DNA from: Octopus vulgaris
Lineage: Eukaryota
Direction of reading: 5' to 3'
Assembly: GCA_951406725.2 (NCBI GenBank)
Contig: OX597816.1
Span: 81,406,001 to 81,470,000, forward strand
DNA length: 64,000 nt
Part shown: piece by piece, positions 2,886 through 56,854 of the stretch
Numbering within the stretch: the stretch's first letter is position 1
Layout of the letters: every line of letters starts with the position of its first letter
The notes under the pieces: model-generated
Told to the model about the DNA's origin: nothing
Seen by the model: only the letters and a program-made list of their open reading frames with translations
Database searches by the model: none
Position numbers and translations under genes: made by a program

Positions 2886-3411
2886 TATTGTTTCTCCAAC
2901 CAAGATAGCTGGTTCCACATATGGATTTCCTCGTGCAGGCTGGAACATTACAACATTGTCCAGGCTAATGCTGAGTCCAAATGCCTTGGAAGAAGCGAAA
3001 ATACGATTCATAAGTATTTGCATGTCATCCATTGTATGTGTGACTGAGTCACAGTCATCTGCATAGAGGAGGTCACGAATAAGAGACTGGAAAACTTTTT
3101 AATTGGCAGCTAATCGGCGCAGATTAAAGAGGCGACCAGAAGACCGATACCTGACATATATTTCCAGAGAACTAACCTTAGCAAAAGCATGGGTAAAAGC
3201 AGCAGCAAGGTACAAAGAAAAGAGAATTGGGGCAAGGATGTCACCCTGCTTGATACCATTCTCTACAAGAATGGGTCCCGCCATGCCATCACCAACATTG
3301 ACCAAAGCCTCCATCCCATCATGAAATGATTTAATTATAAATGCAAAGTGATCCGGACAATCAAGTTTGCTAAGTATTTTCCATAGCAAGGTCCTATTCT
3401 CAGTATCAAAG
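2886..3411 (-). mobile_element. RTE-clade LINE RT fragment (inverted copy of 6791-7340)
   Basis: GIKQGDILAPILF and YRSSGRLFNLRRL motifs; near-identical reverse complement of 6791-7340. Confidence 0.9.
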
Positions 3412-3420
3412 TATGTGTGT

Positions 3421-3463
<43 letters not shown>

Positions 3464-3900
3464 TGTACACACTTACCTGTAAAAAATCTCGTGTGTTTTT
3501 TGCTTATTTCGTATAAAGAATTAAATGATTAAATAAATTCTACAAATTTTATTGTTTAGCAATGTGTTGATACCAACAAACGCTCACAGAACATGTCATG
3601 ACGCAAGGCATGTCTTGAAAATATCCATTGCTTGCTTTTGTGATTGATGACTTTCGTTATTTTAGCGTTTCTTCATCTACTTTTTAAAATCGTTAAATTC
3701 TCAAGGATGTCAGTATTAAATCATTTTGCGAAATTTTTGCAAAAAAATGCCTTTATCACTCATGTAATAGTTTTTTCGGGATTATGATGCACACAATGCT
3801 CATAGTTTCTTTATTGGGAAAAATATAATTAACGTTTGAGATTTTTAAAAAAATTACATATTCTTCGGTATTTTGTGAAATGTCTAACTATGTATTCTGG

Positions 3901-4077
3901 AATGTGACAAAATAGCATGAAGATAAAATGCAGCACTAGAAGGAACTCGTAGGGTAAGTTTGGTTTCATTTCATATATATTTTGTAATGTGACAAAATAG
4001 CATGAAGATAAAATGCAGCACTAGAAGGAACTCGTAGGGTAAGTTTGGTTTCATTTCATATATATTTTGTAATGTGA
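3901..4077. repeat. 85-bp tandem duplication (2.1 copies)
   Basis: aatgtgacaaaatagcatg...tattttgt at 3901-3985 and 3986-4070, identical. Confidence 0.9.
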
Positions 4078-4127
4078 TTTCTGACCTAAATACTGTGAAA
4101 ATGTGCATATTCCACAATATTTTCATT

Positions 4128-4236
<109 letters not shown>

Positions 4237-4241
4237 TGTGT

Positions 4242-4940
4242 GTCAGTATTCAGTTTTATTCCAAGATTTCTTGTCAATAGAGAAATAGCTGGTTTCTAAT
4301 CTAGATCCAAGGCTCCTTCATTGGAATTTCAACATCAAGGTATTTTTGTATGTATGGATGGTTGTAAATGTGCACATTTGTATATTTTATGTACGTATGT
4401 ATTATCATGCATATAGTTGCATATCTAGACATATTTTTATATCATTAAATGATAAACTTCTGAAAAGTTTTACAGACTTTTACAGTTCCAGTGATGGCTT
4501 GGATCAGTAGTCTTTGAAGTAACTTTCTCCTTTCTGGTTTTGAGAAGCCTAATTTCTCAAGATTGGTATTTAGGTAGTGTGTTACATGTCCCAGTGCCGA
4601 AATAATTGCAGGTGTAAACCTGAACTTGTAATCTGGATAGAGCAACTACATATTTCTCAATAGTTCAGCGTAAGTATTCTCATTGACCTTCAGCTTTATG
4701 TTAACATCCGCTGGGCAGCTGATTTCCACAACTGTACTGTTTCTCTTCTCTATCCCAAATCATTATATCAGGTCTATTGTGTTTATATTTTTATTTGGGG
4801 TTTTCAGTGGAACATTTCATCGGGTACTCCTTTTTATTATGAGTGACTATGGCTTCCACCATACTGTGGGTTCATATTTCTTTGTCCTCGGGGTTATCCT
4901 TTCGACGGATCTCGTAATACAATGTCATGTCTCATCGTGA
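4242..4940 (-). mobile_element. R4/Dong-like (restriction-like endonuclease) non-LTR retrotransposon, family A, 3' end
   Basis: C-terminal LYPDYKFRFTPAIISALG...GTVKVCKTFQKFII, homologous to 15790-15990; 3' UTR abuts a microsatellite. Confidence 0.8.
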
Positions 4941-5059
4941 TGTGTGTACCTATGTAAGTTTGTATGTATGTATGTATGTATGTATGTATGTATGTATGTA
5001 TGTATGTATGTATGTATGTATATATGCATGCATGTATGTATGTATGCATCTATGTATGT

Positions 5060-6425
5060 CTTTTATTTTTTAATTATCATGAATCTCCCACTGAGGAGGG
5101 AGTCAGTTTCCAATAAAGAGACAAGACTCTATCTTTACGATGTAGTTAACATAGACAAATTCACATTTGGAACTTGAGAAAAATTTTGTATATTTTTACT
5201 GTTCCATTCACAGATTGCACTTGTAATGTACGAATCAGCCGGTTGATTTCTCTGTCTGAAAATTCCAGTTTATCCAAAATTCTCCTTTAAGCATTTACTA
5301 ACAAAACCTAGTGCTCCAATTATTATTGGTATGAATATGAATTCATAGTCTGAATATAGAAGGTGGAGGTTTTGAAGCCGTTGTCCATAGATATCATCTT
5401 TTTCTTTGATTTTCAGAGAGATAATTATATCAGCTGGGCAGCTGGGCAGCTGGGCAGCTGAACTCTATGACGATACATACCTTTGCCCCTCCATCCCAAA
5501 TGACAATATCCGGCCTCTTATGTTTACATTTGACAGAAGTTTTGATGGGAATATTCCACCAGTATTACTTGAGTTAGTGTTTATGGATGTATTCCATAAT
5601 AAGTGGATTTTCTAAGTTTATTTCAGAACAGTCTTTCTTGGCACTGTAAATTGTTTTAGCGACAACATCGTGCCGCATAGGAAGGTAGTACCGTGATGAC
5701 ATTTTAGGACAGCTGCTAATCACATGCGTGATGTCTTCCACAGAAACATGCCATAGCCTACACATGCGGTTCCACCTTGTGATTACAAGAGCATCCCTGT
5801 CTCTCTTGTTCACTAGGTACTTTGTGGCAATCTCTTGTTCCAGGATTGCAAACGCATAGCCTTCAAAGTGTGATGTGATGTAGTGGTCTTATGTCCAAGA
5901 GAGGCAGCGCTTCGCGTCAATTTTACTGTCTTCCGGGCAACATAGTCTTCTTTTTTTTTTTGTAAACTGAGTGCTATCAGCTGAAAATGTTATTAGTTCT
6001 GGTTGTGTTTTGGCATTGCTAACACTTTTAGCATAAATCTTGAAGTCGTCTACGAAGAAATTATGAGTTACATTGATATTTCTAGCAGTTGAAGATCCTA
6101 GCATGTAACCATTTGTTTTCTGCTGTAAGAACGAAAATGGATTCAGTGCCAAAATGAAAAGAAGTACAGAAAGGCTGTCTTCTTGAAATATTCTCTTTGA
6201 GATGCCTATACTATCTGAAACAATTATTGTTCTCAGTTGGAACGGAGAGAATTGTTGTCCACTCCTTTGTGAGTCTCTCTATAACAGCAATTAGGGTGAT
6301 GGGTACTTTCGCCAGATGTAGGTACTTCAACAGCCATGAATGAGTGATAGAGTCGAATGCCTTCTTATAGTCAAGTCATACTGTCACAAGGTGTCTGTGC
6401 TGTTTTCTTACTTCAAAGAGTACAG
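5060..6425 (-). mobile_element. R4/Dong-like LINE family B, degraded and internally deleted
   Basis: LDYKKAFDS, THNFFVDDFKIY (RT) and CRL..EDITHVISSCP..RHDVVAK (zinc knuckle plus RHD) on the minus strand; preceded by (TATG)n at 4960-5058. Confidence 0.8.
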
Positions 6426-8170
6426 CGATTTGGTGATGATTACATCATACAGTCCCTTCATGATCTTATTAGTGTAATTTGGAGGGATGGTGCAATGCCT
6501 AATGACTGGAAGGATGAAATTATTTTTCCTCTCTTTAAAGGAAAAGGAACCAGAATAATGTGTGGTAACTACAGAGGTATTGCTCTACTATCAACTGCTG
6601 GCAAGATTCTGGCAAATATTCTTCTTACCCGCCTGAATGGGTGTCTCGTAAATGATATCCTATCTGAATCTCAATGTGGCTTCCGGTCTTGTAGAGGGAC
6701 AATGGATATGATGTTCACAGCGAGACAGATGCAGAAGTGCTATGAGCAGAATATGGATCTTGTCCAGGTAATCATTGATTTAACCAAGGCCTTTGATACT
6801 GAGAATAGGACCTTGCTATGGAAAATACTTAGCAAACTTGATTGTCCGGATCACTTTGCATTTATAATTAAATCATTTCATGATGGGATGGAGGCTTTGG
6901 TCAATGTTGGTGATGGCATGGCGGGACCCATTCTTGTAGAGAATGGTGTCAAGCAGGGTGACATCCTTGCCCCAATTCTCTTTTCTTTGTACCTTGCTGC
7001 TGCTTTTACCCATGCTTTTACCCATGCTTTTACCCATGCTTTTGCTAAGGTTAGTTCTCTGGAAATATATGTCAGGTATCGGTCTTCTGGTCGCCTCTTT
7101 AATCTGCGCCGATTAGCTGCCAATTAAAAAGTTTTCCAGTCTCTTATTCGTGACCTCCTCTATGCAGATGACTGTAACTCAGTCACACATACAATGGATG
7201 ACATGCAAATACTTATGAATCGTATTTCCGCTTCTTCCAAGGCATTTGGACTCAGCATTAGCCTGGACAATGTTGTAATGTTCCAGCCTGCACGAGGAAA
7301 TCCATATGTGGAACCAGCTATCTTGGTTGGAGAAACAATACTGAAAGTGGTAGACAAGTTTGTGTACTTGGGCAGCACTCAGCCGTTCTTGCTCCCTGGA
7401 TGATGAAATATCTTTCAGGCTGCAGTGAGCAGCTGATTCCTTCTGGTCTCTTGAGTCTCGTGTCTGGTCCCAGCATGGCAAACGAAAATTGTTGTATACC
7501 GTGCATGTGTACTGACATCGCTCCTTAACTCATGTGAAGCATGGACCCTTTACAAATATCATGTAAAGGTCCATGAACGCTTCCATTAGAGATATCTCAG
7601 GCGCATTCTGAATGCTGGCTGGATCGTAAAAACTCCAGATACACAGTTTCTGAGGAAAGCTGATATCTTGAGTATTGAGGCGATGGTGCACAAGAGCCGG
7701 TTACGCTGGACTGGACACCTTATTAGAATGAAGGATAGCAGGATCCCTAAACAGATGCTATATGGGGAACTTGTTAATGGAAAGAGACCCCAGCATAAAC
7801 CAAGTCTAAGATTTAAGGGCTGTGTCAAGTCCCCATCAAAGGCCTGTAATAAGCTGGAGACTGACTGAGGGAGTAATGCCTGTCATCGCCACAGATGGTG
7901 GAAGCAGGTTAAGGAGGGGGGTCAACACCTATAAAAAGAACACGTATTCTTCATGAAGAATTTAAGCTTGCTGCTCAAAAGCGCACTGCTAGCGTAGTGG
8001 ATGTGGAAAGCTTGGTCTGCAATGTTTGCAGTCGTATATGCTTGTCAAGAGCAGGGCTCTTTGGCCACCGACGGAACAGCAAAAGCAAAATATAAGTTAG
8101 TTCTAGAGCACACAATGTTTCTAAAGGTCAGCAATGGTCTTCCTCGTTCACTAGTGGACGGCCATCATAT
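6426..8170 (+). mobile_element. RTE-clade LINE, 5'-truncated and frameshifted
   Basis: NYRGIALLS, QCGFR, DLTKAFD, GVKQGDILAP, LYADD, RLRWTGHLIRM, C-terminal CNVCSRICLSRAGL zinc finger, RTE-type 3' end ...ggacggccatcat. Confidence 0.9.
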
Positions 8171-16712: not shown

Positions 16713-16769
16713 ATAATTTTTGAACCTGCAACAAGTTCATTTGTTTCCTTGAACGAAAACAAGTCGACG

Positions 16770-17837
16770 ATGAAACAGTCACAGGAAGACATTATAAACC
16801 ATGTGAACGAAGAGACAACAAGAAAATTCTTACCACTGATTATTATCCTATGCTTCATTATGCTGATGGGTGTAATTGGTAACTGCTTAGTCGTCTACAT
16901 CTTTAAGTACAAACTACCTGGCACACCGTCAAGTTTGCTTGTGGTTTACTTGGGCCTTAATCAGATTGTGGACGGCCTGATATGTGTGCCAATGGATATT
17001 TTTCTTCTTTCTCATTCGTATAATTTCCCAGATGATATTCTTTGTCGTTTTATACAAACTTTCATTTTCTCATCGTCTACTATGTCAGGATTGATAATAG
17101 TTGCAATAGCTGTGGATTGCTTTAAAAAGATTTGTCGGCCATTGAAGCGACAGTTTACAAAACAAGATATCCATAGAATTATCGTCTTAATCTTTGTAAT
17201 ATTAATTCTGATTGTGCCCGCACACATGTTCGTAATGGGAGTCAGGGAAGTTCGCACATTCCGTGGAAATGTAACAGGTACTAATTGCTCAATTTCCGAT
17301 AAGAATTCTCCAGCCGTTCCACTCGCTTATTCTGTCTTTCTATTACTTGTGTTTTTGGTGTTAATCATAGTGTTCATTGTAATCTACACTATGGCCTTTA
17401 AGAAACTGAAGACATACAATATAAAAAGGAAATTTTTGTTCGGTAGACTATCAAGAGACAATTCGTCGAAAGAAGAATTTTCAGAATCGGATAAACAATA
17501 TTCCGCGTCAGAAACTAGTTCACAAGTTCGATATCGTAAAAACTATTATGATATAACCCGTATCACACTGAATATGTTTTGTATAACTCTTTCATGGTGT
17601 CTTAGTTTTCTCCCTCATTCTACACTAACTTTCTTAGTTGCAGAAATTATTTTCATAAGACAGTTTATGGCTCCATCAGGAAATTCTTTGGTAAACACTA
17701 GTTTGAATTCTTATTATGTAAACACTATAACCATTCCAATACTTTACATAATCTTCAACCCACTTTTCAGGGAGGAAACTGTGAAATTCTTTAAAAAATA
17801 TGTTTTGTGCAACAGATTTAATAAACCAGAAGAATAA
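16770..17837 (+). CDS. Class A (rhodopsin-like) orphan GPCR, paralogue 1, about 355 aa, single coding exon
   Basis: Seven hydrophobic segments; TM1 GN, C3.25 (LCRF), AIAVDCFKKICRP (DRY-like), ECL2 Cys, SFLP in TM6, IPILY..FNPLFR in TM7/H8; first ATG at 16770 in tcgacgATG context shared with paralogue 3. Confidence 0.9.
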   Translation: MKQSQEDIINHVNEETTRKFLPLIIILCFIMLMGVIGNCLVVYIFKYKLPGTPSSLLVVYLGLNQIVDGLICVPMDIFLLSHSYNFPDDILCRFIQTFIFSSSTMSGLIIVAIAVDCFKKICRPLKRQFTKQDIHRIIVLIFVILILIVPAHMFVMGVREVRTFRGNVTGTNCSISDKNSPAVPLAYSVFLLLVFLVLIIVFIVIYTMAFKKLKTYNIKRKFLFGRLSRDNSSKEEFSESDKQYSASETSSQVRYRKNYYDITRITLNMFCITLSWCLSFLPHSTLTFLVAEIIFIRQFMAPSGNSLVNTSLNSYYVNTITIPILYIIFNPLFREETVKFFKKYVLCNRFNKPEE

Positions 17838-29453: not shown

Positions 29454-31029
29454 CAGTTGCGGCCAAAATGTTCAGAACGGCATTGTTTTCGTCAGAAAAG
29501 TAAGTATAAGTTTTTATCAAAGTAGTTTTATATTCTATAATTTTCACAGACAATAAATACAATGTTAATTGTTATTGTCTGAGATTTTGGTGTACTTTGA
29601 GAGGATAATACAAAACTTATGGATGATTTAGTGATTTACTGCAAAACCCATGGCGGCCAAAATGATCAGAACGGTTGAGAAAATAACAAAATAATCAAAA
29701 ATGACAGAGAATACTGGAATTATTTAATATTTAGTGTGAAGCCCTTTAGCTTCAATCACACTCTGACATCTTTGACTGCATGAGGAAATTAAATTTTCAA
29801 TTTCTTGCTAGGTGATCTTATTCCATTCTCCCTAAAGGGAATTCCATAATTGCTCAGTTGTTTTAGGATTTCTGGCTTTCGAACGTTCTCCTAGAATATT
29901 CCACACATTTTCAATAGGATTGAGATCTGGGCTTTGAGCAGGCCAGTCCATAACAATAACCTTTTCAGCCTTGAGGAAGTTCATGACCACCTTAGCCTTG
30001 TAACATGAGGCATTGTCCTGCATGAATATGGGTGGTCGCTTAGTTGAATTTCTCAGCACAGGCAAGACATGATCTTTTACAAGTTGTTTATAAACTCCTG
30101 CATTTAACTTTCCATGTAATCGCACCAAAGGGCCCACACCATCTCCAGATATCATTCCCCAAACCATGACACTTCCTCCACCGAATTTAACACTAGTCTT
30201 AAGGCATTTAGGCTACAATTTTTCACCTACTTTTCTACCATCTGAGCCAAATAGCATAAACTTAGATTCATCACTGAAATACACCGTTTGCCATTTTGCT
30301 TGAGACCACAACACATGTTCGGTGGCAAAGGTAAGACGACACTTTTTATTCTTGGAGCTGATCAGTGGCTTCACTGTAGGTGTTCTTGCTTGTAGGTCAT
30401 GTTCAACTAAACGACGAGACACAGTTTTTCGAGATAAAGTTTTCTTCAATACAATGCTCATTTTCTGAGAAACAGCAGCAGCAGTTTTAAATCTGTCCTT
30501 TTTAACCAACTTTACCATAGCACGATCTTCTCTCTTGGTCGTTTTTCTTGACCTACCTGTAAACTTTCTTACCACATTCATCGTAGACCATAAGAATACC
30601 ATGTACAACACTTTTTGACTTGTTAACAATCTTTGCAATAGATCCAATACTTAAATTATCCTTCCTTCGAAGCTTAATAATCTGCTGACGAATTGGTAAC
30701 GGAGTAAGTGGCATTATATTAACAAAGTACACTGCAAATATTCTTACTAATGTTTAGTAAACGAACCGTCACGTAAACAAATTCAAAACATTAGAGTTCG
30801 CCGGTTAAATATACTAAAACACGGAGTAAAAGCAACCGTTCTGATCATTTTGGTCGCCATGGGTTTTGCAGTAAATCACTAAATCATCCATAACTTTTGT
30901 ATTATCCTCTCAAATTGCACCAAAATCTCAGGCAATAACAAATAATATTGTATTTATTGTCTTTGATAAAAAATTATATCTACTTTTCTGACGAAAACAA
31001 TACCGTTCTGAACATTTTGGCCGCCACTG
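29454..31029 (-). mobile_element. Tc1-family IR/DR transposon with a defective DD34E transposase (about 30714->29724)
   Basis: Ends CAGT(T/G)GCGGCCAAAATGTTCAGAACGG, TA TSD (29452-29453, 31030-31031), about 220-bp TIRs with inner direct repeats at about 29652 and 30836; FSDESKF, MQDNA, SPDLNPIENVW, GLHTKY* motifs. Confidence 0.93.
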
Positions 31030-31116: not shown

Positions 31117-32326
31117 ATGAACGATAAGAAAGCAAAAACACTCTTACCAGTGATTATTGTTTTATTCTTCATGATGCTATTTGGTTTTATTGGTAATTGT
31201 TTTGTCGTCTATATTCATCCGCTCAAATCAAAATACTCACCATCCGGTTTGCTTGTGATTTTCCTAGGGTGGAGTCAGATTTTGGGCTGCGTGCTTACCA
31301 ATGAATATTTCTATTCTTTTTCATTCGTATAATTTCCCAGATGATATTGTCTGTCGTTTTATGCAGGCTGTCATTTTCATATCGTCTTCTATGACAGGAA
31401 TGATAGTGTTCACAATCGCTGTGGACCTCTTTAAAAAGGTCTGTCGGCCGTTTAAGCCACAGTTTACAAGTCGATATATTAAGAAGATCATCTTCTGCAC
31501 TCTTATAGTATTAACTATACTTATGCTCGCCAACTTTTATGTTGGCGGGACCAGGCAGGTTCCGATACATTATAAAAATCTAAATGATACTACGTGCTCA
31601 CTTTCCGATAAGATTCCTCAATACTTTGCGTTGTTTTTTTGTTTTGTTTTTTTCTTTTCTTTTCTGTAACATGTTAATAGTATTCGCAATATTGGTGTTT
31701 GTGTTCGTGATGATCTATTCTTCCGTTATTAAACTGAGACACTATGATAAAAATAGGAAAATGCTATTCGACTTTCTAAAACCATCAGTTTTGACAATTG
31801 AAAAATCCTCGATGAATGCTGGCTCAGAAGAACCAGAAACCCAAAAGAAAGTGACAGAATCTAATTCGCAAGTGAATCAAAAACAGAGATATTATCTCAT
31901 AACACGAATCGCACTCAATTTGTTTTTTATTACTCTGTCATGTAAACAAATTCAAAACATTAGAGTTCGCCGGTTAAATATACTAAAACACGGAGTAAAA
32001 GCAACCGTTCTGATCATTTTGGTCGCCATGGGTTTTGCAGTAAATCACTAAATCATCCATAACTTTTGTATTATCCTCTCAAATTGCACCAAATCAGCTA
32101 CATCCTTCATTTCACCCTAACGTTCATAATATCAAAAATGTTTATTATAGAGAAAAATAAGAAATCGCATGAACCCACACTATTCAGCTCATCAATGACT
32201 TATTATTCAAACGATATAACCATCCCAATAATTTACATAGTCTTCAACCCTCCTTTCAGGAGAGATGTTGCTACTTTCTGGAAAAAATATATCTTATGCA
32301 AAAGATTTAATAAACTTGACCAATAA
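31117..32326 (+). pseudogene. Class A GPCR paralogue 2, pseudogene
   Basis: Homologous to paralogues 1 and 3 across four ORF pieces; frameshifts near 31295 and in the T-run at 31631-31665; 152-bp Tc1-derived insertion in TM6. Confidence 0.88.
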
Positions 32327-39004: not shown

Positions 39005-39078
39005 GGGCTGTTTAGCTTAATGGTAAAGCACTTGGCCAGTGTTTTCAAGAGACGTGGGTTCCAATCCCATGGCTGTTT
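39005..39078 (+). pseudogene. tRNA-like sequence (pseudo-tRNA or SINE head)
   Basis: A box TAGCTTAATGGTAAAGC, T-arm GTGGGTTCCAATCCCAT; poor acceptor stem and enlarged anticodon loop. Confidence 0.5.
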
Positions 39079-39592
39079 GTTGACAAATTTTTCCGCTTTG
39101 TAAGTGTAATTTACTCAATGTTTCTGCTGCTCTAACAGCATCTCTGCTTTCGAAAATAACTTATCGTATATATATATATATTACATACATACATATAAGT
39201 ATTATTACAGTTTAACCTCACATTTGACATATTCGTTTGAGACCGAACAATTTCGTTTTTTTACACTAACATATTCTATTCTGTTCTTTCGCTATACGCC
39301 CTCCTACAATTAGTACATAGCCTCATTACCCTCTCGACCTATTAGATATAGCATCGAAATCAATTAACTTTTACTTTCTAACGCGGCTAACTTTGAAGGT
39401 GAACTTTGTTTCCCCTGTGGTTTTTAATGTATTTTGGACAAATCTGATCAGTTGGTCATCGCTCGTTCTTTAGGTAATTATCAGACGGTACAATAGTAAA
39501 AATATGCTGGAAAGTTACCCATATCAGACTAGCGTCAGAATCTGTATTATACATCGATATAAACGCTAAAGAAAACAGAATTAGACAGCATC

Positions 39593-40110
39593 TGTCTCAC
39601 TTAGAAGGTGAAATTTATACCTGTCTCTCTAAGAAGGGAAAATTTATGTCTCATTTTGAAGGGAAAATTTATACCTGTCTTACTTAGAAGAGAAAATTTA
39701 TACCCGTCTAACTTTGAAGGTGAAGTTTATACCCGTCTAACTTTGAAGGTGAAGTTTATACCCGTCTGACTTTGAAGGTGAAGTTTATACCCGTCTGACT
39801 TTGAAGGTGAAGTTTATACCCGTCTGACTTTGAAGGTGAAATTTATACCCGTATAACTTTGAAGGTGAAGTTTATACCCGTCTAACTTTGAAGGTGAAGT
39901 TTATACCCGTCTGATTTTGAAGGTGAAATTTATACTCGTCTCACTTTGAAGATGAAATTTATACACATCTCGCTTGAAGGTGTAATTTATACCTATCTCA
40001 CTTTAAAGGTAAAATTTATATTAGTCTCACTTTGGGGGGGAAATTTATACCCATCTCACTTTGAAGCTGAAATTTATTTATACCCGTCTTACTATGAAAG
40101 TTAAATTCAA
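39593..40110. repeat. 29-bp minisatellite, about 17 copies
   Basis: Unit TTTGAAGGTGAAGTTTATACCCGTCTGAC, near-perfect at 39713-39930, degenerate at both edges. Confidence 0.92.
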
Positions 40111-40537
40111 GATTTCCCTGTGGTTTTAAATGTGTTTTGAACCAATCTGACCACGAAAACCGTGGGGATTCATGGTTCCTTAGGTAAATCATACCTCCAA
40201 AATGAAGCGGATCTAATGGTAAGAATTTACCGCCAAATCTCCTTCAATAAAAGATGAGGATCAAGTCTGATTTTTCGTTTTTGTTTCCACAATTTAATTT
40301 CTAGCAAAAGAAAAATACTTTCGAAATACAATGTTGTAATTCTTTGTTGAACACCTGTAATAAACTTTTACATTTCTGTGGTACTACCTTTCAATGTGTT
40401 TCACATTACAACGTGACGTCTCAGGCATCAGACATCTGTATGATTTTAGTCACAAATCGTACACTAATCAATTAGTAATATATGGCCTTGAACATATAAG
40501 TGGTGTCAAGGTGTTTTGAACTAATAATAATAATAAT

Positions 40538-43559: not shown

Positions 43560-44690
43560 AGTCCCGAACAGGTCTATTCGCAACAACACCAACCTTATGC
43601 GATACATCATAGAGAGAAACGGTTTCGATAGGGCTCTGATCAATTTGGATCAAACCAAAGCAATCTTTAGGTTCAACCATCGCTACTTGGAAACCGTCCC
43701 GAAAGTGGTTGGTTTCGGCTCCGTTTTCCGCGGTTGGACCGCTGCAATGCACAGTGGCACCTACTCGGTGGTCAGAGTAAACAGCCATCTGTCAGAATCG
43801 TTTCGTATCGCATGCTCGGTCCTTCAGTGCAGCCTACTGTCGCCTCTTCTATACGTAGTGGTTCTCAAACCACTGCTGCGGAAATTAGAACAGTTGAAGG
43901 GTATCCCTTTCGAACTGGGACACGAGGGGGCAGTGTCAGACAATGCCACCGGCATGGCATCGGACGCCTCTAAAGGAATATGAGTCGGTTGCAAGAGCTA
44001 ATGCCAACACTGACAAGTCGGTGGGCTTGCGGCTGGGCACTTGGAGGGGCAGGTTGATGCCATCAGACGGCGTCGTCGGACACTGGACTGACGGCCCAGT
44101 GAAACTGCTCGGGGTCTGGTTTCGTTCCGACTTCCAGGTAGATAAGAACTGGGACGAGGTGACGAACAGACTAACCACTCTTACCCAGAAATAGGATAAA
44201 AGGAAGCTATTCCTGAAAGGTGGGACATAGGTAGCAAATACCTATATTGCATCCGTCATCAACTATCGCCTGACCGTCGTGCTCTGCCTTGGTTACTCTT
44301 TCATCAGGTTGGAGCATCTCTTATTTAATTTCTTGTGGAAGGATGTACTACAATGGTCAGACGGTCAGTCTGCTGCCAGCACCCTCTGAGTAGCGGCTTA
44401 AGCATGCCGTGACTTCTGATGCGCAGACACGCGCTCAGGTTGTGCTACCTGCAATAATTTCTGGACGGTGAGTATGTTTGGGCTATGTTTGAGAGAACGT
44501 CTTTCTGCAGCTCGTCTCCTTGATGGAGCTGCAGTCCTAGGAGAAGAAAAGACCGGTACTGGGTGCCTGGTACCTAGAATGTCGTCAGGTGTTCACAGCC
44601 CTCTTCCTGTCAGGCAATGGGATCGGTGAACATTCCGCTTTCATAATCTGTAGAGGATTAGTTGCGGGAAATTGTGTCGATGTTCTTGGG
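43560..44690 (+). mobile_element. Degraded Tx1-like LINE RT fragment
   Basis: LINLDQTKA, LSPLLYV..LKPLLRKL, GLRLGTWR, GHWTDGPVKLLGVWF; homologous to 54500-55700. Confidence 0.85.
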
Positions 44691-45711: not shown

Positions 45712-46938
45712 TGAAGGGAGAGAGAGCTAACGAACTACTCTGATACAAAGTAATCCATTTCGACTTATAGCAATCATTTATTTATTAGCCAGCCAATTGA
45801 GAGTTAAATATTTTGATTATGAACACAAGACACCAAATCTTATGATACGTCCATCGCTCCTTCCGCTGCCAGCTGAGCATCTTCGATAACTAAAGCTCAC
45901 TTCTATTTTGCATATATTTTTACAAACATTTTCCTTGGTACTGAAGCGAGTCAGGAAAGATCTATTTTGTCGTCGTGGCATAGTTCAGTTGTGCGGTGGC
46001 AGACTCCGGCCAATCAGGGTTGGAGGCGTATGAATTCAAACGGCAGTGATCTGCATTAGCAGTGAAGCTGCAGTTCAAGTCAATTCAAGATGAATAGACA
46101 GCCTTCAAGTAACATCTCTTCCTTTGACATGCCAACTCATTTGAATGATAACAGCTACAACTTTGCCTCAAAATGAGTGGGTACTTCTTGTTTTTATTAG
46201 CTTACAACGGCTTCCACATAATCCATTTGTGTAAAAAGTAAGTTATGAGATTTTCCGTCTCGCATACACATGCAGATTAGTCGTTGTTACTACTTGCCAG
46301 CACTCGCTTTATTTAAATAAAGTCTACAATGTTTCGTTGTAAATGAACTGCCTTCTGATATTCTTTATACACGCTTATCAAAAGCACACTGAAATGAACT
46401 CTCTCGTGACTGCTTTTCATACATTAAATCACAGAACACTCACGCTAAATTAGTGACCACACAACATTGATTAAACTATTATATTTTCAGGCATATAAGT
46501 CGACGTAGCATATAGTGTAAACATGTTGTGTAAACGTTCAACATCGTTACCATCTATCCAATTCTTGCTGCATTTAACATGGAATTTTTAGTCTTCCCTC
46601 CCTTCTGTGGTAGTAAATTTTAGTTTGAAAGATTCAATTTGTACACCGGGAAATACGGTACATTTTTTAAAATTCTATTTTAGATTTTTGCATTCAATAA
46701 ATTAATCTGCACTGAATTATTCGCATAAACACTATATATATCACAAAAAAGATGGTCCCTATATCTCAACAGGAGTATGTAATCCTGAGAATTCTACTGG
46801 CATGTTTTCACATCACTAAATGTTCAGAAATTTTGTTTCGTAAACCTTGTTTTAAAATACATTTTTAATTCCATGAGAATCATTGTCATACTGTATTTTA
46901 CCTCTTACAGATATCCTTTGCACCAAAACAGATCGACG

Positions 46939-48018
46939 ATGAATAAATCAGATTCTGAACGTTTGACTGCTTTTAACCAACAGGAAGTCGAAAAGCGCCT
47001 AGCTATTATTACTCTTTTATCCATTTTTATGATAATGGGTATTATTGGTAATAGTTTAATAGTCTACATTCATATTTGCAAATTAAATCGAACAGCATCC
47101 ACTTTGCTTATTATTTTCTTTGGCTGGAGTCAAATTTTTACCAGCGCGATATGTATACCAATGGATATTGTTTTTCTTCTTTATTCATATATTTTCACAA
47201 ATAGCTTTCTTTGTCGTATTATGCAGTCTACCATTTTTATGTCAGCTTTTGTATCAGGATTGATAATATTCACAATTGCTATAGATCGGTTTAAAAGAGT
47301 ATGCCGGCCGTTTGCAACACAATTTAATCGTAAGGATGTCAAGAAGCTCATCTGGTTAAACATTGTAATAACGACTATACCGATGACTGTCAACTTTTAT
47401 GTTTGTGGAATTAAAAAAATTCCCTTGTATAATAACTTAATCGGTCACATGTGCTCAATGTCAGATAAAGCAAATCCACGTGTGGTATACAGTTTCTTCA
47501 TTTTTATGCTAGTACTATGCGTGGTGTTAGTGCTGACGTTCATCATAATTTATTCTACAATATTTATGAAGCTGAGGGAATACAGTAAACGTAAGAGATT
47601 GTTGGCCTCCCTTCAACCGTCAATTTCAAAAGTTAGTGAAATAACCTCGTCGAGAGAGGAACATTTAGAACCAACGATAAGTAAAGATTCATTATTCCAA
47701 CCCATGCAACGCAGAAGATATTATATTGCCACAACCCGAATCACATTCAATATGTTTTGTATAACTCTTTCATGGTGTCTTACCTACATTCCTTATTTCA
47801 CAGTAACTTTCTTAACTACAAAAATAAATGTCAGAAGAGTCGGTTGGAAACCTACTGAGGACATATTTTATGAAATAGCTGATCATTCTTACTATATAAA
47901 CGCTGTCATCATTCCAATAATTTACGTAATCTTCAACCCACCTTTCAGGAGAGAAGTTATTACCCTCTTCAAACGATATATTTTGTGCACCATAAGTAAT
48001 AAACCAGACGAAAATTAG
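46939..48018 (+). CDS. Class A (rhodopsin-like) orphan GPCR, paralogue 3, about 359 aa, single coding exon
   Basis: 7TM; GN in TM1, LCRI (C3.25), IAIDRFKRVCRP, ECL2 HMCS, TYIP in TM6, IPIIY..FNPPFR; acceptor ttttacctcttacAG at 46910; tcgacgATG start (ORF-track Met at 46873 is probably intronic). Confidence 0.9.
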   Translation: MNKSDSERLTAFNQQEVEKRLAIITLLSIFMIMGIIGNSLIVYIHICKLNRTASTLLIIFFGWSQIFTSAICIPMDIVFLLYSYIFTNSFLCRIMQSTIFMSAFVSGLIIFTIAIDRFKRVCRPFATQFNRKDVKKLIWLNIVITTIPMTVNFYVCGIKKIPLYNNLIGHMCSMSDKANPRVVYSFFIFMLVLCVVLVLTFIIIYSTIFMKLREYSKRKRLLASLQPSISKVSEITSSREEHLEPTISKDSLFQPMQRRRYYIATTRITFNMFCITLSWCLTYIPYFTVTFLTTKINVRRVGWKPTEDIFYEIADHSYYINAVIIPIIYVIFNPPFRREVITLFKRYILCTISNKPDEN

Positions 48019-48539: not shown

Positions 48540-48930
48540 ATATCATTATTTCCAAATTTCTAATTCTCTCTAAAGGAGACTACGGCAGCGGTACTGAATA
48601 TTAATAGTTACCGCTAAGTGGTAGTCCAGAAAAACAGGACGAATGATGAGGTTGATTAGCTCCAAGAGGCCATCACCTCTAGCTAGCTGTGTGACACACA
48701 AACTGAGTCCATTATAACCTTATAGCAGGGGAGGTCAGCAGGTTCCCCTTGCTGGTCTGGCAACCACAGACTAGTTTCGAGGTGGTTGCCTCTTATCAAT
48801 GTGGAGTAGCCGAACCCAACAGGCGTCGCTGCAGACCGACAAACTAGAGGCGATGGCCTCTTCGAGCTAATCAACGGCAGCATTCGTTTATTTTTCTGAA
48901 CTGCCATGTTAGCTTAGCGATAACTATTAA
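48540..48930. mobile_element. (TA)n-flanked non-coding inverted-repeat element carrying a hammerhead
   Basis: 48601-48682 is an imperfect reverse complement of 48844-48930; distant homology to the 53787 element (ttagctcca.gaggccatc.cct, acacaaactg..tcca...taacctt). Confidence 0.75.
48764..48804 (-). ncRNA. Minimal type I hammerhead ribozyme, U3-A8 core variant
   Basis: ccaca-TTGATAA-gagg caacca cctc-GAAA-ctag-TC-tgtgg: perfect stems I and II, palindromic stem III, GUC triplet. Confidence 0.75.
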
Positions 48931-53728: not shown

Positions 53729-53791
<63 letters not shown>

Positions 53792-53954
53792 GTTATCGCC
53801 ATACTAATATGGCATTCTTATAAAAATAAGAATAAAGCTGTCCGCTTATTAGCTCCATGAGGCCATCGCCTTAAGTTAGCTATTTGATACACAAACTGTA
53901 TCCATATAACCTTTGAACAAGGGAGGTCAGTCGCTCCACACTACTTGGCCGGCA

Positions 53955-53996
53955 GCTACAGACGCGTTTCGGGGTATTGCCCCTTTTCAATGCAGC
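53955..53996 (-). ncRNA. Minimal type I hammerhead ribozyme, U3-A8 core variant
   Basis: gctgca-TTGAAAA-gggg caata cccc-GAAA-cgcg-TC-tgtagc on the minus strand. Confidence 0.75.
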
Positions 53997-54452
53997 GTAG
54001 CCATACCAGTAGGTGTCGCTTCTGACGATCTCTGTTCAAAGGTTTTATTTACCTAGCTTCGGTGGAATACATCCACTTGTTTTCAATAATAGAAATATTA
54101 AAATTACTAAAAAGGGGCAATACCCCGAAACGCGTCTGTAGCTGCCGGCCAAGTAGTGTGGAGCGACTGACCTCCCTTGTTCAAAGGTTATATGGATACA
54201 GTTTGTGTATCAAATAGCCAACTTAAGGCGATGGCCTCATGGAGCTAATAAGCGGACAGCTTTATTCTAATTTTTATAAGAATGCCATATTAGTATGGCG
54301 ATAACTATTATTTTCCGGGAACGCTGCCGTTGTTCTCTTTTAGAGAGACTTAGTAATTTTAATATTTCTATTATTGAAAACAAGTGGATGTATTCCACCG
54401 AAGCTAGGTAAATAAAACCTTTGAACAGAGATCGTCAGAAGCGACACCTACT

Positions 54453-56267
54453 GTGTTAGCAGAAAGGTTGAAGGTCGTCATGGAAAAACTTGTCGGAAAG
54501 GCACAGACATGTGCAATCCCAGGCAGGTCGATCGAAGATAATCTTCACCTTCTACGCTACACTATAGACAGGGTTGGGCAATTAGCCGGCAAAGGAGGGG
54601 CATTGGTCCATTTAGACCAAAGTAAAGCATTTGATAGGGTAGATCATCAGTACCTGGCGACGGTTCTCGAAGCGGCTGGGCTAGGTCCTGACTTTCGCGG
54701 GTGGATATCAGCTATGTACAGCGGTATCAAGTCCACAGTCCAGATAAACGGTTACTTAACGGAACCGTTTTCGATTAAGCGTTCAGTTCGTCAAGGATGT
54801 CCCTTGTCCCCTCTCCTGTACGTTTTGGCTCTTGAGCCATTGCTGCGGAAGTTGGAGACGGTGAGATGCAATCCTAATGAAATCGGATGCGGTAAGTCTG
54901 TTTCTGCGTATGCGGATGACGTCACCTTCATCGTGTCCAACGAAGCACAACTAACTCGTGTAGAAGGTGCTCTCCGAAGATACGAAGCGGTGGCTGGGGC
55001 AAAAGTTAACAAGGACAAGTCCACTGGTTTGCGCCTCGGCACCTGGAGGAACAAGCCGATATCGTCCAGTGTTGTTGGACACTGGACAGATGGTCCTGTT
55101 AAATTGCTTGGAGTTTGGTTTGGTTCAGACTCCCAGACGGAGAAAAATTGGAGCGAGGTAGTGACCAAGGTAGAAGCCATAGTTCGGGAGTGGTCCGGAA
55201 GGCATCTTTCCTTGAAAGGGAGGGCGGAGGTGGTACAGGTGTTTATAGCATCTGTAATCACCTATCGCCTGACTGTCGTGCCTTGCCCCGATTTGTGGCT
55301 AAGCAAGTTGGATCGACTCCTTTTCCGCTTTTTGTGGAAGGGAAGAAAGCCACTTGTAAGGCGCTCCGTGTGTTGCCAGGAACCACTAAAGGGTGGGCTG
55401 GGGATGCCTTGGTTAATGATGCGCAGGCATGCGCTGAGACTGAGACATCTCTGGTTTCACCTGGAAGGTGATAAGGTGTGGAGTCCGCTGGCAGATAATT
55501 TCTTCCCGCAACCGGACTCTATGGAGAGATTTAAACCCGGTTTCATTAAAAGACGGAACCTGACTTTATGGCAGAAAGAGTGCCGACAGGCACTCTGGCT
55601 GATCCACAAGATAGGCAAAGCCGGCTGCGGGAATACCACCTCGACATTTTATAGAAGGATGGTAGAGGCAAAAAATGACGACGTCCTAAGAGGGGCTCTG
55701 GGGTTCGATGAGGATCAACTATCCGACCTGTTTAAGAAGACTTTCAAGCCGGGGTATTTGGACAATTACCAAAAATCCCTGACTTGGCAGTGCTATAGGA
55801 ATGCTCTACCTGTTCGCGATAAGTTATATAGGCATGGAATGTCAGTGCCACCGACATGTCCAAGATGTGGGTTGGACGATGAAACCGTCCAGCACGCTTT
55901 TGTACATTGTCAGGAGCTGTCAGGCTTAATAAGTTACGTAGAACACGTGTTGTCGCATCTGGGACGAGTACAGCTATCGGCTGGTTCTATAATAAAGATG
56001 ATACCGCCAGCTGGACTCTCAAAGGAAGGTGAGGCTTGTTTTCACTGTACGGTGGCAGTACTGAAAGAGTGTGTGTGGAGAACTAGATTGGAAGGTTTGG
56101 TGTCAGGAACCTTTGTCTCTGGATATGGTATGTTAAAATACTTCAGATACCATCTAAAGAGCAAGATGGATTTAGAGAAGAGGAACCTGACACAGAAAAA
56201 GTATGTGAATCGATGGAAGGATGTGATAAAAAAGGTGGGTGTGAGTAACCCTGCTTGGTCATCATGA
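54453..56267 (+). CDS. Tx1/L1-type ORF2 (RT plus C-terminal zinc finger), N-terminally truncated
   Basis: LDQSKAFDRV, VRQGCPLSPLLY, AYADDVT, GGLGMP, CPRC..DETVQHAFVHC; 604 codons without a stop, but no endonuclease domain and no true start. Confidence 0.85.
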   Translation: MLAERLKVVMEKLVGKAQTCAIPGRSIEDNLHLLRYTIDRVGQLAGKGGALVHLDQSKAFDRVDHQYLATVLEAAGLGPDFRGWISAMYSGIKSTVQINGYLTEPFSIKRSVRQGCPLSPLLYVLALEPLLRKLETVRCNPNEIGCGKSVSAYADDVTFIVSNEAQLTRVEGALRRYEAVAGAKVNKDKSTGLRLGTWRNKPISSSVVGHWTDGPVKLLGVWFGSDSQTEKNWSEVVTKVEAIVREWSGRHLSLKGRAEVVQVFIASVITYRLTVVPCPDLWLSKLDRLLFRFLWKGRKPLVRRSVCCQEPLKGGLGMPWLMMRRHALRLRHLWFHLEGDKVWSPLADNFFPQPDSMERFKPGFIKRRNLTLWQKECRQALWLIHKIGKAGCGNTTSTFYRRMVEAKNDDVLRGALGFDEDQLSDLFKKTFKPGYLDNYQKSLTWQCYRNALPVRDKLYRHGMSVPPTCPRCGLDDETVQHAFVHCQELSGLISYVEHVLSHLGRVQLSAGSIIKMIPPAGLSKEGEACFHCTVAVLKECVWRTRLEGLVSGTFVSGYGMLKYFRYHLKSKMDLEKRNLTQKKYVNRWKDVIKKVGVSNPAWSS

Positions 56268-56502
56268 AGGGAGAAAATAGTCTCTGGGCTCTTAGGCTGT
56301 CGGGTAAGAATCCTGACTGTGATATACCTAGCTGGCCAAAATCATTTTTAATTTAAAAAAAAAGGAGAAAAGTAAAGTCTAGTATCATAATCAATAATCA
56401 ACATATGTAAATATCAAACGAACAACGTAAACTTTTTGTAATTATGTTTTGTATTGTAATGTACTATCTCTGTAAGATTTTTATAATCATAATAAAGATT
56501 TA
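54454..56502 (+). mobile_element. Young 5'-truncated Tx1-clade LINE with a 17-bp TSD
   Basis: AGAAGCGACACCTACTG at 54437-54453 and 56503-56519; AATAAA at the 3' end; uninterrupted ORF. Confidence 0.92.
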
Positions 56503-56529
56503 AGAAGCGACACCTACTGGTCTGGCTAC

Positions 56530-56571
56530 GCTGCATTGAAAAGGGGCAATACCCCGAAACGCGTCTGTAGC
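56530..56571 (+). ncRNA. Minimal type I hammerhead ribozyme, U3-A8 core variant (predicted cleavage after 56565)
   Basis: gctgca-TTGAAAA-gggg caata cccc-GAAA-cgcg-TC-tgtagc; 6-bp stem I with one GU pair. Confidence 0.78.
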
Positions 56572-56854
56572 TGCCGGCCAAGTAGTGTGGAGCGACTGAC
56601 CTCCCTTGTTCAAAGGTTATATGGATACAGTTTGTGTATCAAATAGCTAACTTAAGGCGATGGCCTCATGGAGCTAATAAGCGGACAGCTTTATTCTTAT
56701 TTTTATAAGAATGCCATATTAGTATGGCGATAACTATTATTTTCCGGGAACGCTGCCGTTGTTCTCTTTTAGAGAGACTTAGTAATTTTAATATTTCTAT
56801 TATATATATATATATTTATATATATATTTATTTATATATATATATACATATATA

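Follow-up and report, generated by a model that had tools for sequence, protein, structure and literature searches.

A non-coding hammerhead repeat with a period of 363 nt, interrupted by a long interspersed nuclear element (LINE), occupies positions 53786-56803 of the window, as we call the whole 64-kb stretch of Octopus vulgaris DNA analysed here. We consider it probable that this unit is a multi-copy non-LTR retrozyme (LTR, long terminal repeat) that carries its own promoter of the small nuclear RNA (snRNA) type and owes its copying into TA microsatellites to enzymes of Penelope-like elements (PLEs). The short tandem units have a GC content of 41%, within the limit of 50% for such retrozymes, contain one hammerhead each and are not bounded by LTRs; their longest stop-free frame is 65 codons, and the open reading frame (ORF) for reverse transcriptase (RT) and GIY-YIG endonuclease of an autonomous PLE was not found in them. 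Unit base 1 is position 56566, the start of the predicted cleavage product, and PSE stands for the proximal sequence element of snRNA promoters. The features of the locus are:

48554-48929, strand not assigned: related subfamily, represented by an older copy with two arms, 73-77% identical and with the palindrome ACTAGT
53786-54110, minus strand: inverted arm, 325 nt, by self-comparison unit 214-363 then 1-175; its short ('A') outer end, with no tail, abuts (TA)n
53955-53996, minus strand: complete type I hammerhead motif, its core U3-A8, with cleavage predicted at the 53961/53960 bond
54066-54083, minus strand: PSE-like element of the inverted arm; predicted +1 at 54023
54110-56803, plus strand: direct arm, consisting of unit 337-363, 1-317, the LINE insert, 301-363 and 1-238
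54110-54453, plus strand: first part of the direct arm, unit 337-363 (hammerhead cut in its core at the inversion junction) and unit 1-317
54377-54394, plus strand: PSE-like element, unit 241-258, its core 56 nt upstream of unit base 301
54408-56267, plus strand: RT and zf-RVT frame of the LINE
54437-54453, plus strand: target-site duplication, 5' copy, 17 bp (unit 301-317); snRNA-type transcription is predicted to start at 54437
54454-56502, plus strand: target-specific LINE copy of the L1/Tx1 group, 2049 nt, 5'-truncated (positions 3310-5361 of 5362)
56503-56519, plus strand: 3' copy of the target-site duplication, 17 bp
56530-56571, plus strand: complete type I hammerhead motif, core UUGAAAA; predicted cleavage after 56565
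56566-56803, plus strand: unit 1-238, its long ('B') outer end joined to (TA)n
56741-56803, plus strand: 63-nt 'tail' (unit 176-238) at the end of the direct arm, missing from the inverted arm

Much of this architecture had been recognized in the original prediction. The distance of 2429 nt between the motifs at 54114 and 56543 falls to the claimed 363 nt once the 2049-nt insert and the 17-nt duplication are subtracted, and uninterrupted arrays elsewhere in the genome have that same period. Self-comparison recovered both complete motifs where they had been placed, with the core TTGAAAA, together with the inverted copy, estimated then at about 320 nt, and a copy at 54110 that starts at unit base 337, inside the core, and is cut by the inversion. 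The unit copies at the locus are indeed nearly identical (0-3 substitutions apart) and free of longer frames, and (TA)n flanks the whole two-armed locus on both sides. The claim of several families in the window was overstated, since self-comparison found one further, diverged copy (48554-48929; hammerhead core TTGATAA, start 48799 on the minus strand) and no other, the whole-window repeat search being dominated by microsatellites. The LINE, which had been taken for an incidental insert, proved to be site-specific for the unit and the most informative part of the locus.

Mobilization of the unit by PLEs is, in our judgement, very likely, and the evidence lies in the ends of its insertions. In the 2.8-Gb assembly (227 contigs), 84 insertions were mapped after removal of overlapping duplicates, five loci of a sister family and the window's older copy, with stray fragments trimmed at two of the mapped loci. 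Their outer ends fall at unit base ~175 (A) or ~238 (B). Among 60 two-armed insertions there are 46 with one A and one B end, 3 with two B ends, none with two A ends and 11 with one end elsewhere, so that the A+B arrangement, an inverted truncated copy with a tail at one end, is found in 46 of the 49 that can be classified (p = 3e-11 against independent choice). The 24 one-armed insertions end at B (15), at A (8) or at another site (1), and none of them shares a 5' flank with another. A (TA)3 run lies within 14 nt of 117 of the 132 A or B ends, and TAT-like bases, matching the TA target, form the end of both start sites. The sister family obeys the same end rule, with ends at 183 and 221-228. 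An inverted copy with a one-sided tail is the published signature of PLEs (PMC8557442) and has been explained by two internal RT start sites (PMC11167929); here and below, published reports are cited for the portions covered in this analysis.

Two young autonomous PLE families were found in the genome, each with an RT, a CX2-5CxxC linker and, at the C terminus, a GIY-YIG endonuclease, an organization that assigns them jointly to the pair Neptune or Nematis. The 781-aa family has a 40-nt tail, a U3-A8 hammerhead and the A+B arrangement in 3 of 3 inverted insertions (20 loci), while the 775-aa family (L179-L208) has a 32-nt tail, TA targets and two ends, with A+B in 2 of 3; all 76 of its scored copies are 99-100% identical over the 571 residues searched, and the motif pattern found no hammerhead in it. 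Enzymes of the Neptune/Nematis type are likely to be those that copy the unit into TA microsatellites. In the 781-aa family (L091-L098, L159-L178, e.g. G000:C5:1040500-1046500) an upstream second ORF of up to 479 codons overlaps the RT-endonuclease frame, the hammerhead lies in the terminal repeat and TGACGTC-type motifs are repeated in the 3' region.

The composition of the arms indicates how they were made. In 58 young insertions, divergence is 0.74% within arms and 0.91% between arms as against 2.3% between insertions, and agreement at shared variant sites is 294/320 for copies of one arm, 141/163 for copies of opposite arms and 7851/50260 for copies of different insertions; it follows that one haplotype gave rise at once to both arms and all of their units. 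Rare variants occur in one copy of an array 214 times, in some copies 10 times (3 of them in L130) and in all copies 15 times. Roughly a dozen haplotypes exist, each filling whole arrays, which implies that new haplotypes were repeatedly re-amplified from a single unit. Arms reach 5.5 units in length and pass the cleavage site seamlessly in 128 of 131 cases. None of 101 arm stops lies at that site and 21 lie at unit 37-53, where an arm would enter a long predicted helix, itself almost a palindrome; five arms that had seemed to stop at the cleavage site were alignment-boundary artefacts, removed by extension. Together, the one-A-one-B rule and the single haplotype of each insertion constrain how a PLE primes both strands.

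The hammerhead itself is not a chance match, because the general U3-A8 pattern matches the genome 2,474 times and its reversed control 0 times. A family-specific pattern gave 1,205 matches, again with none in the reversed control, and a DNA search with the unit returned 136 matches from 40 scored of 979 candidates, the full-length ones being 96-100% identical and many of them 363 nt apart. The motif has the UGANNA / GAAA / UH core, the 3-8 pair and the three helices of a type I hammerhead; at 56530-56571 helix I has 6 bp, helix II 4 bp and helix III is the palindrome ACGCGU. Rfam gave no hammerhead family among its 71 window matches at E<=1. Counted genome-wide on one search scaffold, the core classes number 2,474 (U3-A8), 60 (C3-G8), 60 (C3-A8) and 15 (U3-G8), so that, as had been foreseen, CUGANGA-only searches would catch 60 of the approximately 2,600 motifs of this pattern. 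Across 17 diverse motifs, 87% of cells are paired, 14 of 19 pairs have changed on both sides and the covariation score is 0.588, compared with at most 0.124 in slid controls, a shuffle control being inflated by the relatedness of the motif sequences; the 3-8 pair is present in this alignment partly by construction, and the mismatch classes were therefore counted apart. Of the first 100 matches listed, 96 by visual count have a palindromic helix III, with four different palindromes, the two central bases of the helix having been left unconstrained in the search pattern. Covariation and retention of the palindrome across families argue that the fold is under selection, and the predicted ribozyme is likely to be active in at least some subfamilies. 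Two motifs co-fold as a swapped dimer (-31.9 versus 2 x -12.9 kcal/mol), while folding of a single motif did not form helix III and gave z of only -1.3 to -2.9 against shuffles; for the whole unit z = -7.1. Near-identical unit sequence is present in 19 of the 24 sequencing runs listed, labelled as five organisms, and contigs from runs guessed to be RNA span the unit, being silent on starts, strand or circles. The genomic evidence thus supports the original description of a recently active, TA-targeted, Penelope-mobilized, retrozyme-like element with a dimer-type hammerhead.

The sister family resembles the unit solely at the hammerhead and contains U3-A8 (358 nt) and C3-G8 (359 nt) subfamilies that are 90% identical. 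About half of the C3-A8 matches belong to one young 360-nt subfamily (L357-L375, e.g. G000:C4:80855900-80859400), 92-93% identical to both the C3-G8 and the U3-A8 sisters, which is a possible natural intermediate of the compensatory core change; at the 20 loci fetched, 18 have C3-A8 cores only, 1 is mixed and 1 is unrelated. These natural C3-G8, C3-A8 and U3-A8 subfamilies offer a test of how much cleavage matters.

The unit likely carries its own snRNA-type promoter with +1 at base 301. A PSE profile was built, with no retrozyme input, from 12 distinct U1/U2 promoters of this genome, where a common core occurs at -55 to -59 in 39 of the 50 U1/U2 5' ends fetched. Unit 241-258 on the plus strand ranks first of 726 windows scored with this profile, and 1 of 300 dinucleotide shuffles reaches its score anywhere. 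At the level of sequence, its position 56 nt before base 301 is that of the PSE in snRNA-type RNA polymerase II (Pol II) units, 55-60 nt upstream of +1, and there is good reason to believe that this putative element is genuine. In older C3-G8 motifs the best PSE match lies 113-115 nt upstream of cleavage in 7 of 17, compared with 119 nt in the unit. A candidate 3' box at unit 272-296, plausible by eye, did not stand out from chance (74 of 300 shuffles reach the best alignment). Support of an independent kind comes from the LINE, the insertion site of which coincides with the predicted +1.

This LINE, which we take to belong to the Tx1 group as named in the original prediction, has an ORF1 with a zinc knuckle and an ORF2 with apurinic/apyrimidinic (AP) endonuclease, RT and zf-RVT, the ORF2 product being closest to L1 among solved structures. 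It inserts site-specifically at unit base 301/302. Among its 3' ends at 30 loci, the 19 of at least 97.7% identity (15 places, among them an array of five copies) and L241 run into the unit at this point, the other 10 rows (9 places) not continuing into it. Intact 5' ends number 18, of which 16 are preceded by unit base 317 and the other 2 by the first 17 bases of U1. One older, 5'-truncated copy lies against U1 +1 and has a PSE-like site immediately upstream of its 5' end. In 3 of 20 U2 copies an 83%-identical lineage occupies +1, in one case at full length, with a 14-bp duplication and directly behind an intact PSE. The 17-base targets have just 6 (U1) and 2 (U2) positions in common with the retrozyme target, and the endonucleases differ from the retrozyme type at 13 (U1) and 32 (U2) of 240 residues. 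With U1 and retrozyme targets at the same promoter position, the LINE provides a natural target-switch series. We infer that the retrozyme promoter serves it in the way that the U1 and U2 promoters serve its sisters. Pure hitch-hiking of a single LINE insertion was rejected as a full account, since the hosts span several haplotypes (down to 94.5% identity) and the window copy has its own duplication. Eight of 13 full-length copies lie in one minority host haplotype, and the LINE in one insertion, L377, may be a hitch-hiker.

These observations admit a chain of three tiers, in which PLEs copy a circular retrozyme with a host-type snRNA promoter and the LINE targets the transcription start itself, not a sequence preference of its endonuclease. 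Guidance would come from SNAPc, from tethering to the open promoter or from pairing via the co-transcribed flank, and the LINE would have switched among U1, U2 and retrozyme targets, its endonuclease little altered and its insertions always on +1. If true, start-site targeting would give a retrotransposon an unusual means of finding its target, and we offer the chain tentatively, as a possibility somewhat short of probable. Among the non-retrozyme 3' junctions, 9 of 14 open with an ATAC-like word, for the most part at a distance from snRNA genes, and two off-target copies, those with a duplication that could be placed, showed no PSE upstream; both results speak against pure start-site guidance and towards a preference in sequence or pairing. 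Selection for transcribed insertions could also favour +1.

Some copies of the LINE deserve separate mention. At G000:C2:73046563-73068722 five are stacked in one retrozyme array, most of them separated by the 17-bp duplication alone, and stacking likewise occurs in a U1 (L356) and a U2 (L381) cluster. A full-length copy between two U2 genes (L302, G000:C15:21149248-21154589) has the first 17 U1 bases at its 5' end, away from any U1 gene, suggesting that its RNA began at a U1 start.

From these findings a life cycle can be proposed. The PSE at unit 241-258 would start Pol II at base 301 and, because the unit is tandem, the promoter would itself lie inside the copied RNA. Pairing of neighbouring hammerheads through their palindromic helices III would lead to cuts at 363/1, setting free a monomer for a host ligase to circularize. 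A PLE RT-endonuclease would then nick (TA)n and prime one strand at ~175 and the opposite strand at ~238, the cDNAs running a variable distance, without scars at the cleavage site, over up to 5.5 units and being joined head to head, mostly at short overlaps; what is seen of this step is its footprint in DNA, from which the mechanism is reconstructed. Long homogeneous arrays would arise mostly by going round the circle and in part from uncleaved linear multimers. Finally, the L1/Tx1-group LINE enters at base 301/302, from where it would use the retrozyme's promoter. The PSE is followed by two cut sites in 27 of the 84 insertions; because this is not so at the window locus, and because the LINE there parts the PSE from the downstream ribozyme, the window locus itself is likely to be dead.

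Several observations weigh against this interpretation. The sample of insertions was not random, about half being the best-scoring matches to a query that ended at base 238 and the other half coming from the match list of the first chromosome. The PSE score of the unit, 11.5, is below those of all 12 training promoters (13.2-24.2, in-sample), that of the sister family is weak (3.9) and a PSE at the spacing noted above is missing in 10 of the 17 older C3-G8 motifs. No sequence similarity to the unit was found in either sampled PLE family, and their tails (40 and 32 nt) are shorter than its own (63 nt). Self-cleavage, transcript and circle of the unit are predictions from sequence; eight of nine Xenopus retrozyme dimers failed to cleave in vitro, and in vitro an anole PLE used unprocessed RNA, cleavage not being needed (PMC11167929). 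The mismatched C3-A8 subfamily was amplified with the same two ends, in up to ~3 tandem units, and an intact 3-8 pair in the core is therefore not required for spreading. The earlier statement that this pair is required and that U3-A8 variants exist thus stands in its second part, such variants having been published, and is too strict in its first as far as spreading is concerned. Lastly, one arm of L377 includes a LINE fragment that has neither a duplication nor a unit upstream of it, which suggests copying from linear, uncleaved read-through RNA; a later deletion also fits. A ligated circle, the template proposed in PMC7229834 and PMC4209133, would account for the seamless passages and the long arms, and given the spread of the C3-A8 subfamily and L377 we rate rolling-circle copying, with the circle as the main template, as only a little better than an even bet.

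For the same PLE-mobilized parasite, the template might instead be linear read-through RNA that leaves tandem master loci uncleaved, in which case the hammerhead would be a weak or dispensable passenger and template switching would renew the arrays. Amplification of C3-A8 copies, the resemblance of L377 to a copy of a linear LINE-retrozyme chimera and the use of unprocessed RNA as the main substrate of the anole PLE (PMC11167929) all agree with such a course, and the seamless junctions fit it as well as they fit a circle. However, covariation and palindrome retention place the fold under selection, the paired cores outnumber or equal the mismatched ones (U3-A8 2,474 and C3-G8 60; C3-A8 60 and U3-G8 15), and the filling of arrays by each new haplotype needs repeated re-amplification from one unit, so that we hold this alternative to be unlikely.

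An improbable alternative is that the copies are stumps of the pseudo-LTR (pLTR) of an autonomous PLE yet to be found. Tail, inversion and TA targeting are PLE features, and sampling covered 98 PLE loci of few families and, for the GIY-YIG domain, 150 scored of 6,136 candidates. Perfect head-to-tail runs of up to 5.5 units with no ORF are hard to reconcile with such stumps, as is the lack of a common 5' flank in the one-armed insertions. Unit-like DNA was matched in 1 of the 98 PLE loci, of few families, and there on the opposite strand as an independent copy; the GIY-YIG search and a second PLE protein search found no autonomous partner with homology to the unit. Within this partial sampling the pLTR homology reported for other retrozymes was not found, the unit is not the pLTR of any sampled PLE, and the autonomous element with the same terminus envisaged in the original prediction did not appear. 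As the unit has no DNA likeness to either PLE family, neither is named as its partner. Spread and lengthening of a minisatellite at the DNA level, by unequal exchange or conversion, which would accommodate the few arrays with derived variants in adjacent copies (10 partial, 3 in L130), was already disfavoured and is very improbable in view of the two fixed ends, the inverted arms, the dispersal over many chromosomes and the similar divergence within and between arms.

The reading we prefer, a PLE-copied non-LTR retrozyme, extends what is already in print, namely the U3-A8 core, published for Schistosoma Penelope-like hammerheads (PMC4209133), and the retrozyme-Penelope link, proposed in PMC7229834 and by Li, Clavereau & Pollet (2026 preprint, 10.64898/2026.07.22.740005). 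What is added here is the end rule, the predicted promoter at base 301 and the specificity of the LINE for that base. Animal non-LTR retrozymes (Cervera & de la Pena 2020, PMC7229834; 2026 preprint) are likewise tandem, non-coding, low in GC, ~360 nt long and proposed to be mobilized by PLEs, with one type I hammerhead per unit and strongly self-paired RNA; the present unit differs in having the U3-A8 core in a motif of canonical architecture. Their link to PLEs was argued from co-occurrence and pLTR homology, the latter found for the partners of 21 of 57 Xenopus retrozyme families (2026 preprint), whereas here no pLTR homology was found; in turn, tails, A/B asymmetry and promoter are not described in the covered portions of either report. 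Circles have been shown experimentally for those retrozymes and are predicted from the sequence of this one. With PLE insertions (PMC8557442; PMC11167929) the unit shares the inverted truncated copy, the tail at one end, two internal starts and the (TA)n target, but it has no ORF and its tail is 63 nt rather than 30-40 nt long; the anole PLE is reported to start without homology (PMC11167929), whereas the starts of the unit match the TA target. The PLE hammerheads of Schistosoma mansoni (PMC4209133) have the same compensatory core and palindromic helix III, with dimer activity proposed. They are minimal and mostly single, in contrast to the tandem unit with its 6-bp helix I and 4-bp helix II, the canonical architecture of that report. 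An internal snRNA-type Pol II promoter in a tandem hammerhead repeat has a precedent in newt satellite 2 (Coats et al., 1994, as cited in PMC2220036), from a distant animal group, the promoter of the present unit being predicted from sequence and from the LINE insertion point. Tx1L, Keno (U2), Tx1-Mar and Kibi/Koshi (PMC4494074) resemble the window LINE in their two ORFs, AP endonuclease, RT and strict target, and Tx1-clade LINEs insert, as it does, in other mobile elements or snRNA genes (PMC4494074). The window LINE differs in its retrozyme target and in having three close lineages all at +1 of an snRNA-type unit (U1, U2, retrozyme). A literature search, with Repbase and most subscription journals outside its scope, turned up Keno in U2 and Tx1 in DNA transposons; it found neither a retrozyme-targeting LINE nor a tail analysis of a retrozyme in the portions covered. 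The mover, transcription and circle template of animal retrozymes have so far been argued mostly from co-occurrence; this family supplies a footprint, Penelope tails and paired start sites beside young autonomous PLEs whose RT-endonuclease frames are open. What makes it valuable is the end rule together with the haplotypes, the promoter prediction and the LINE by which it is marked.

The rest of the window holds further features. An older relative of the LINE RT region, 65% identical, lies at 43978-44438, and near-perfect long inverted repeats within RT-like sequence are found at 2886-3411 and 6791-7340, 3.4-3.8 kb apart. Three single-frame genes for rhodopsin-family G protein-coupled receptors are spaced ~15 kb apart on the plus strand (16713-17837, 31268-32051 and 46789-48018), the middle one split over two frames. 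A Tc1-type transposase fragment is present at 30213-30650 (minus strand), a tRNA-like match (40 bits) at 39006-39078 (plus strand) and a 29-nt tandem repeat at 39590-40119.

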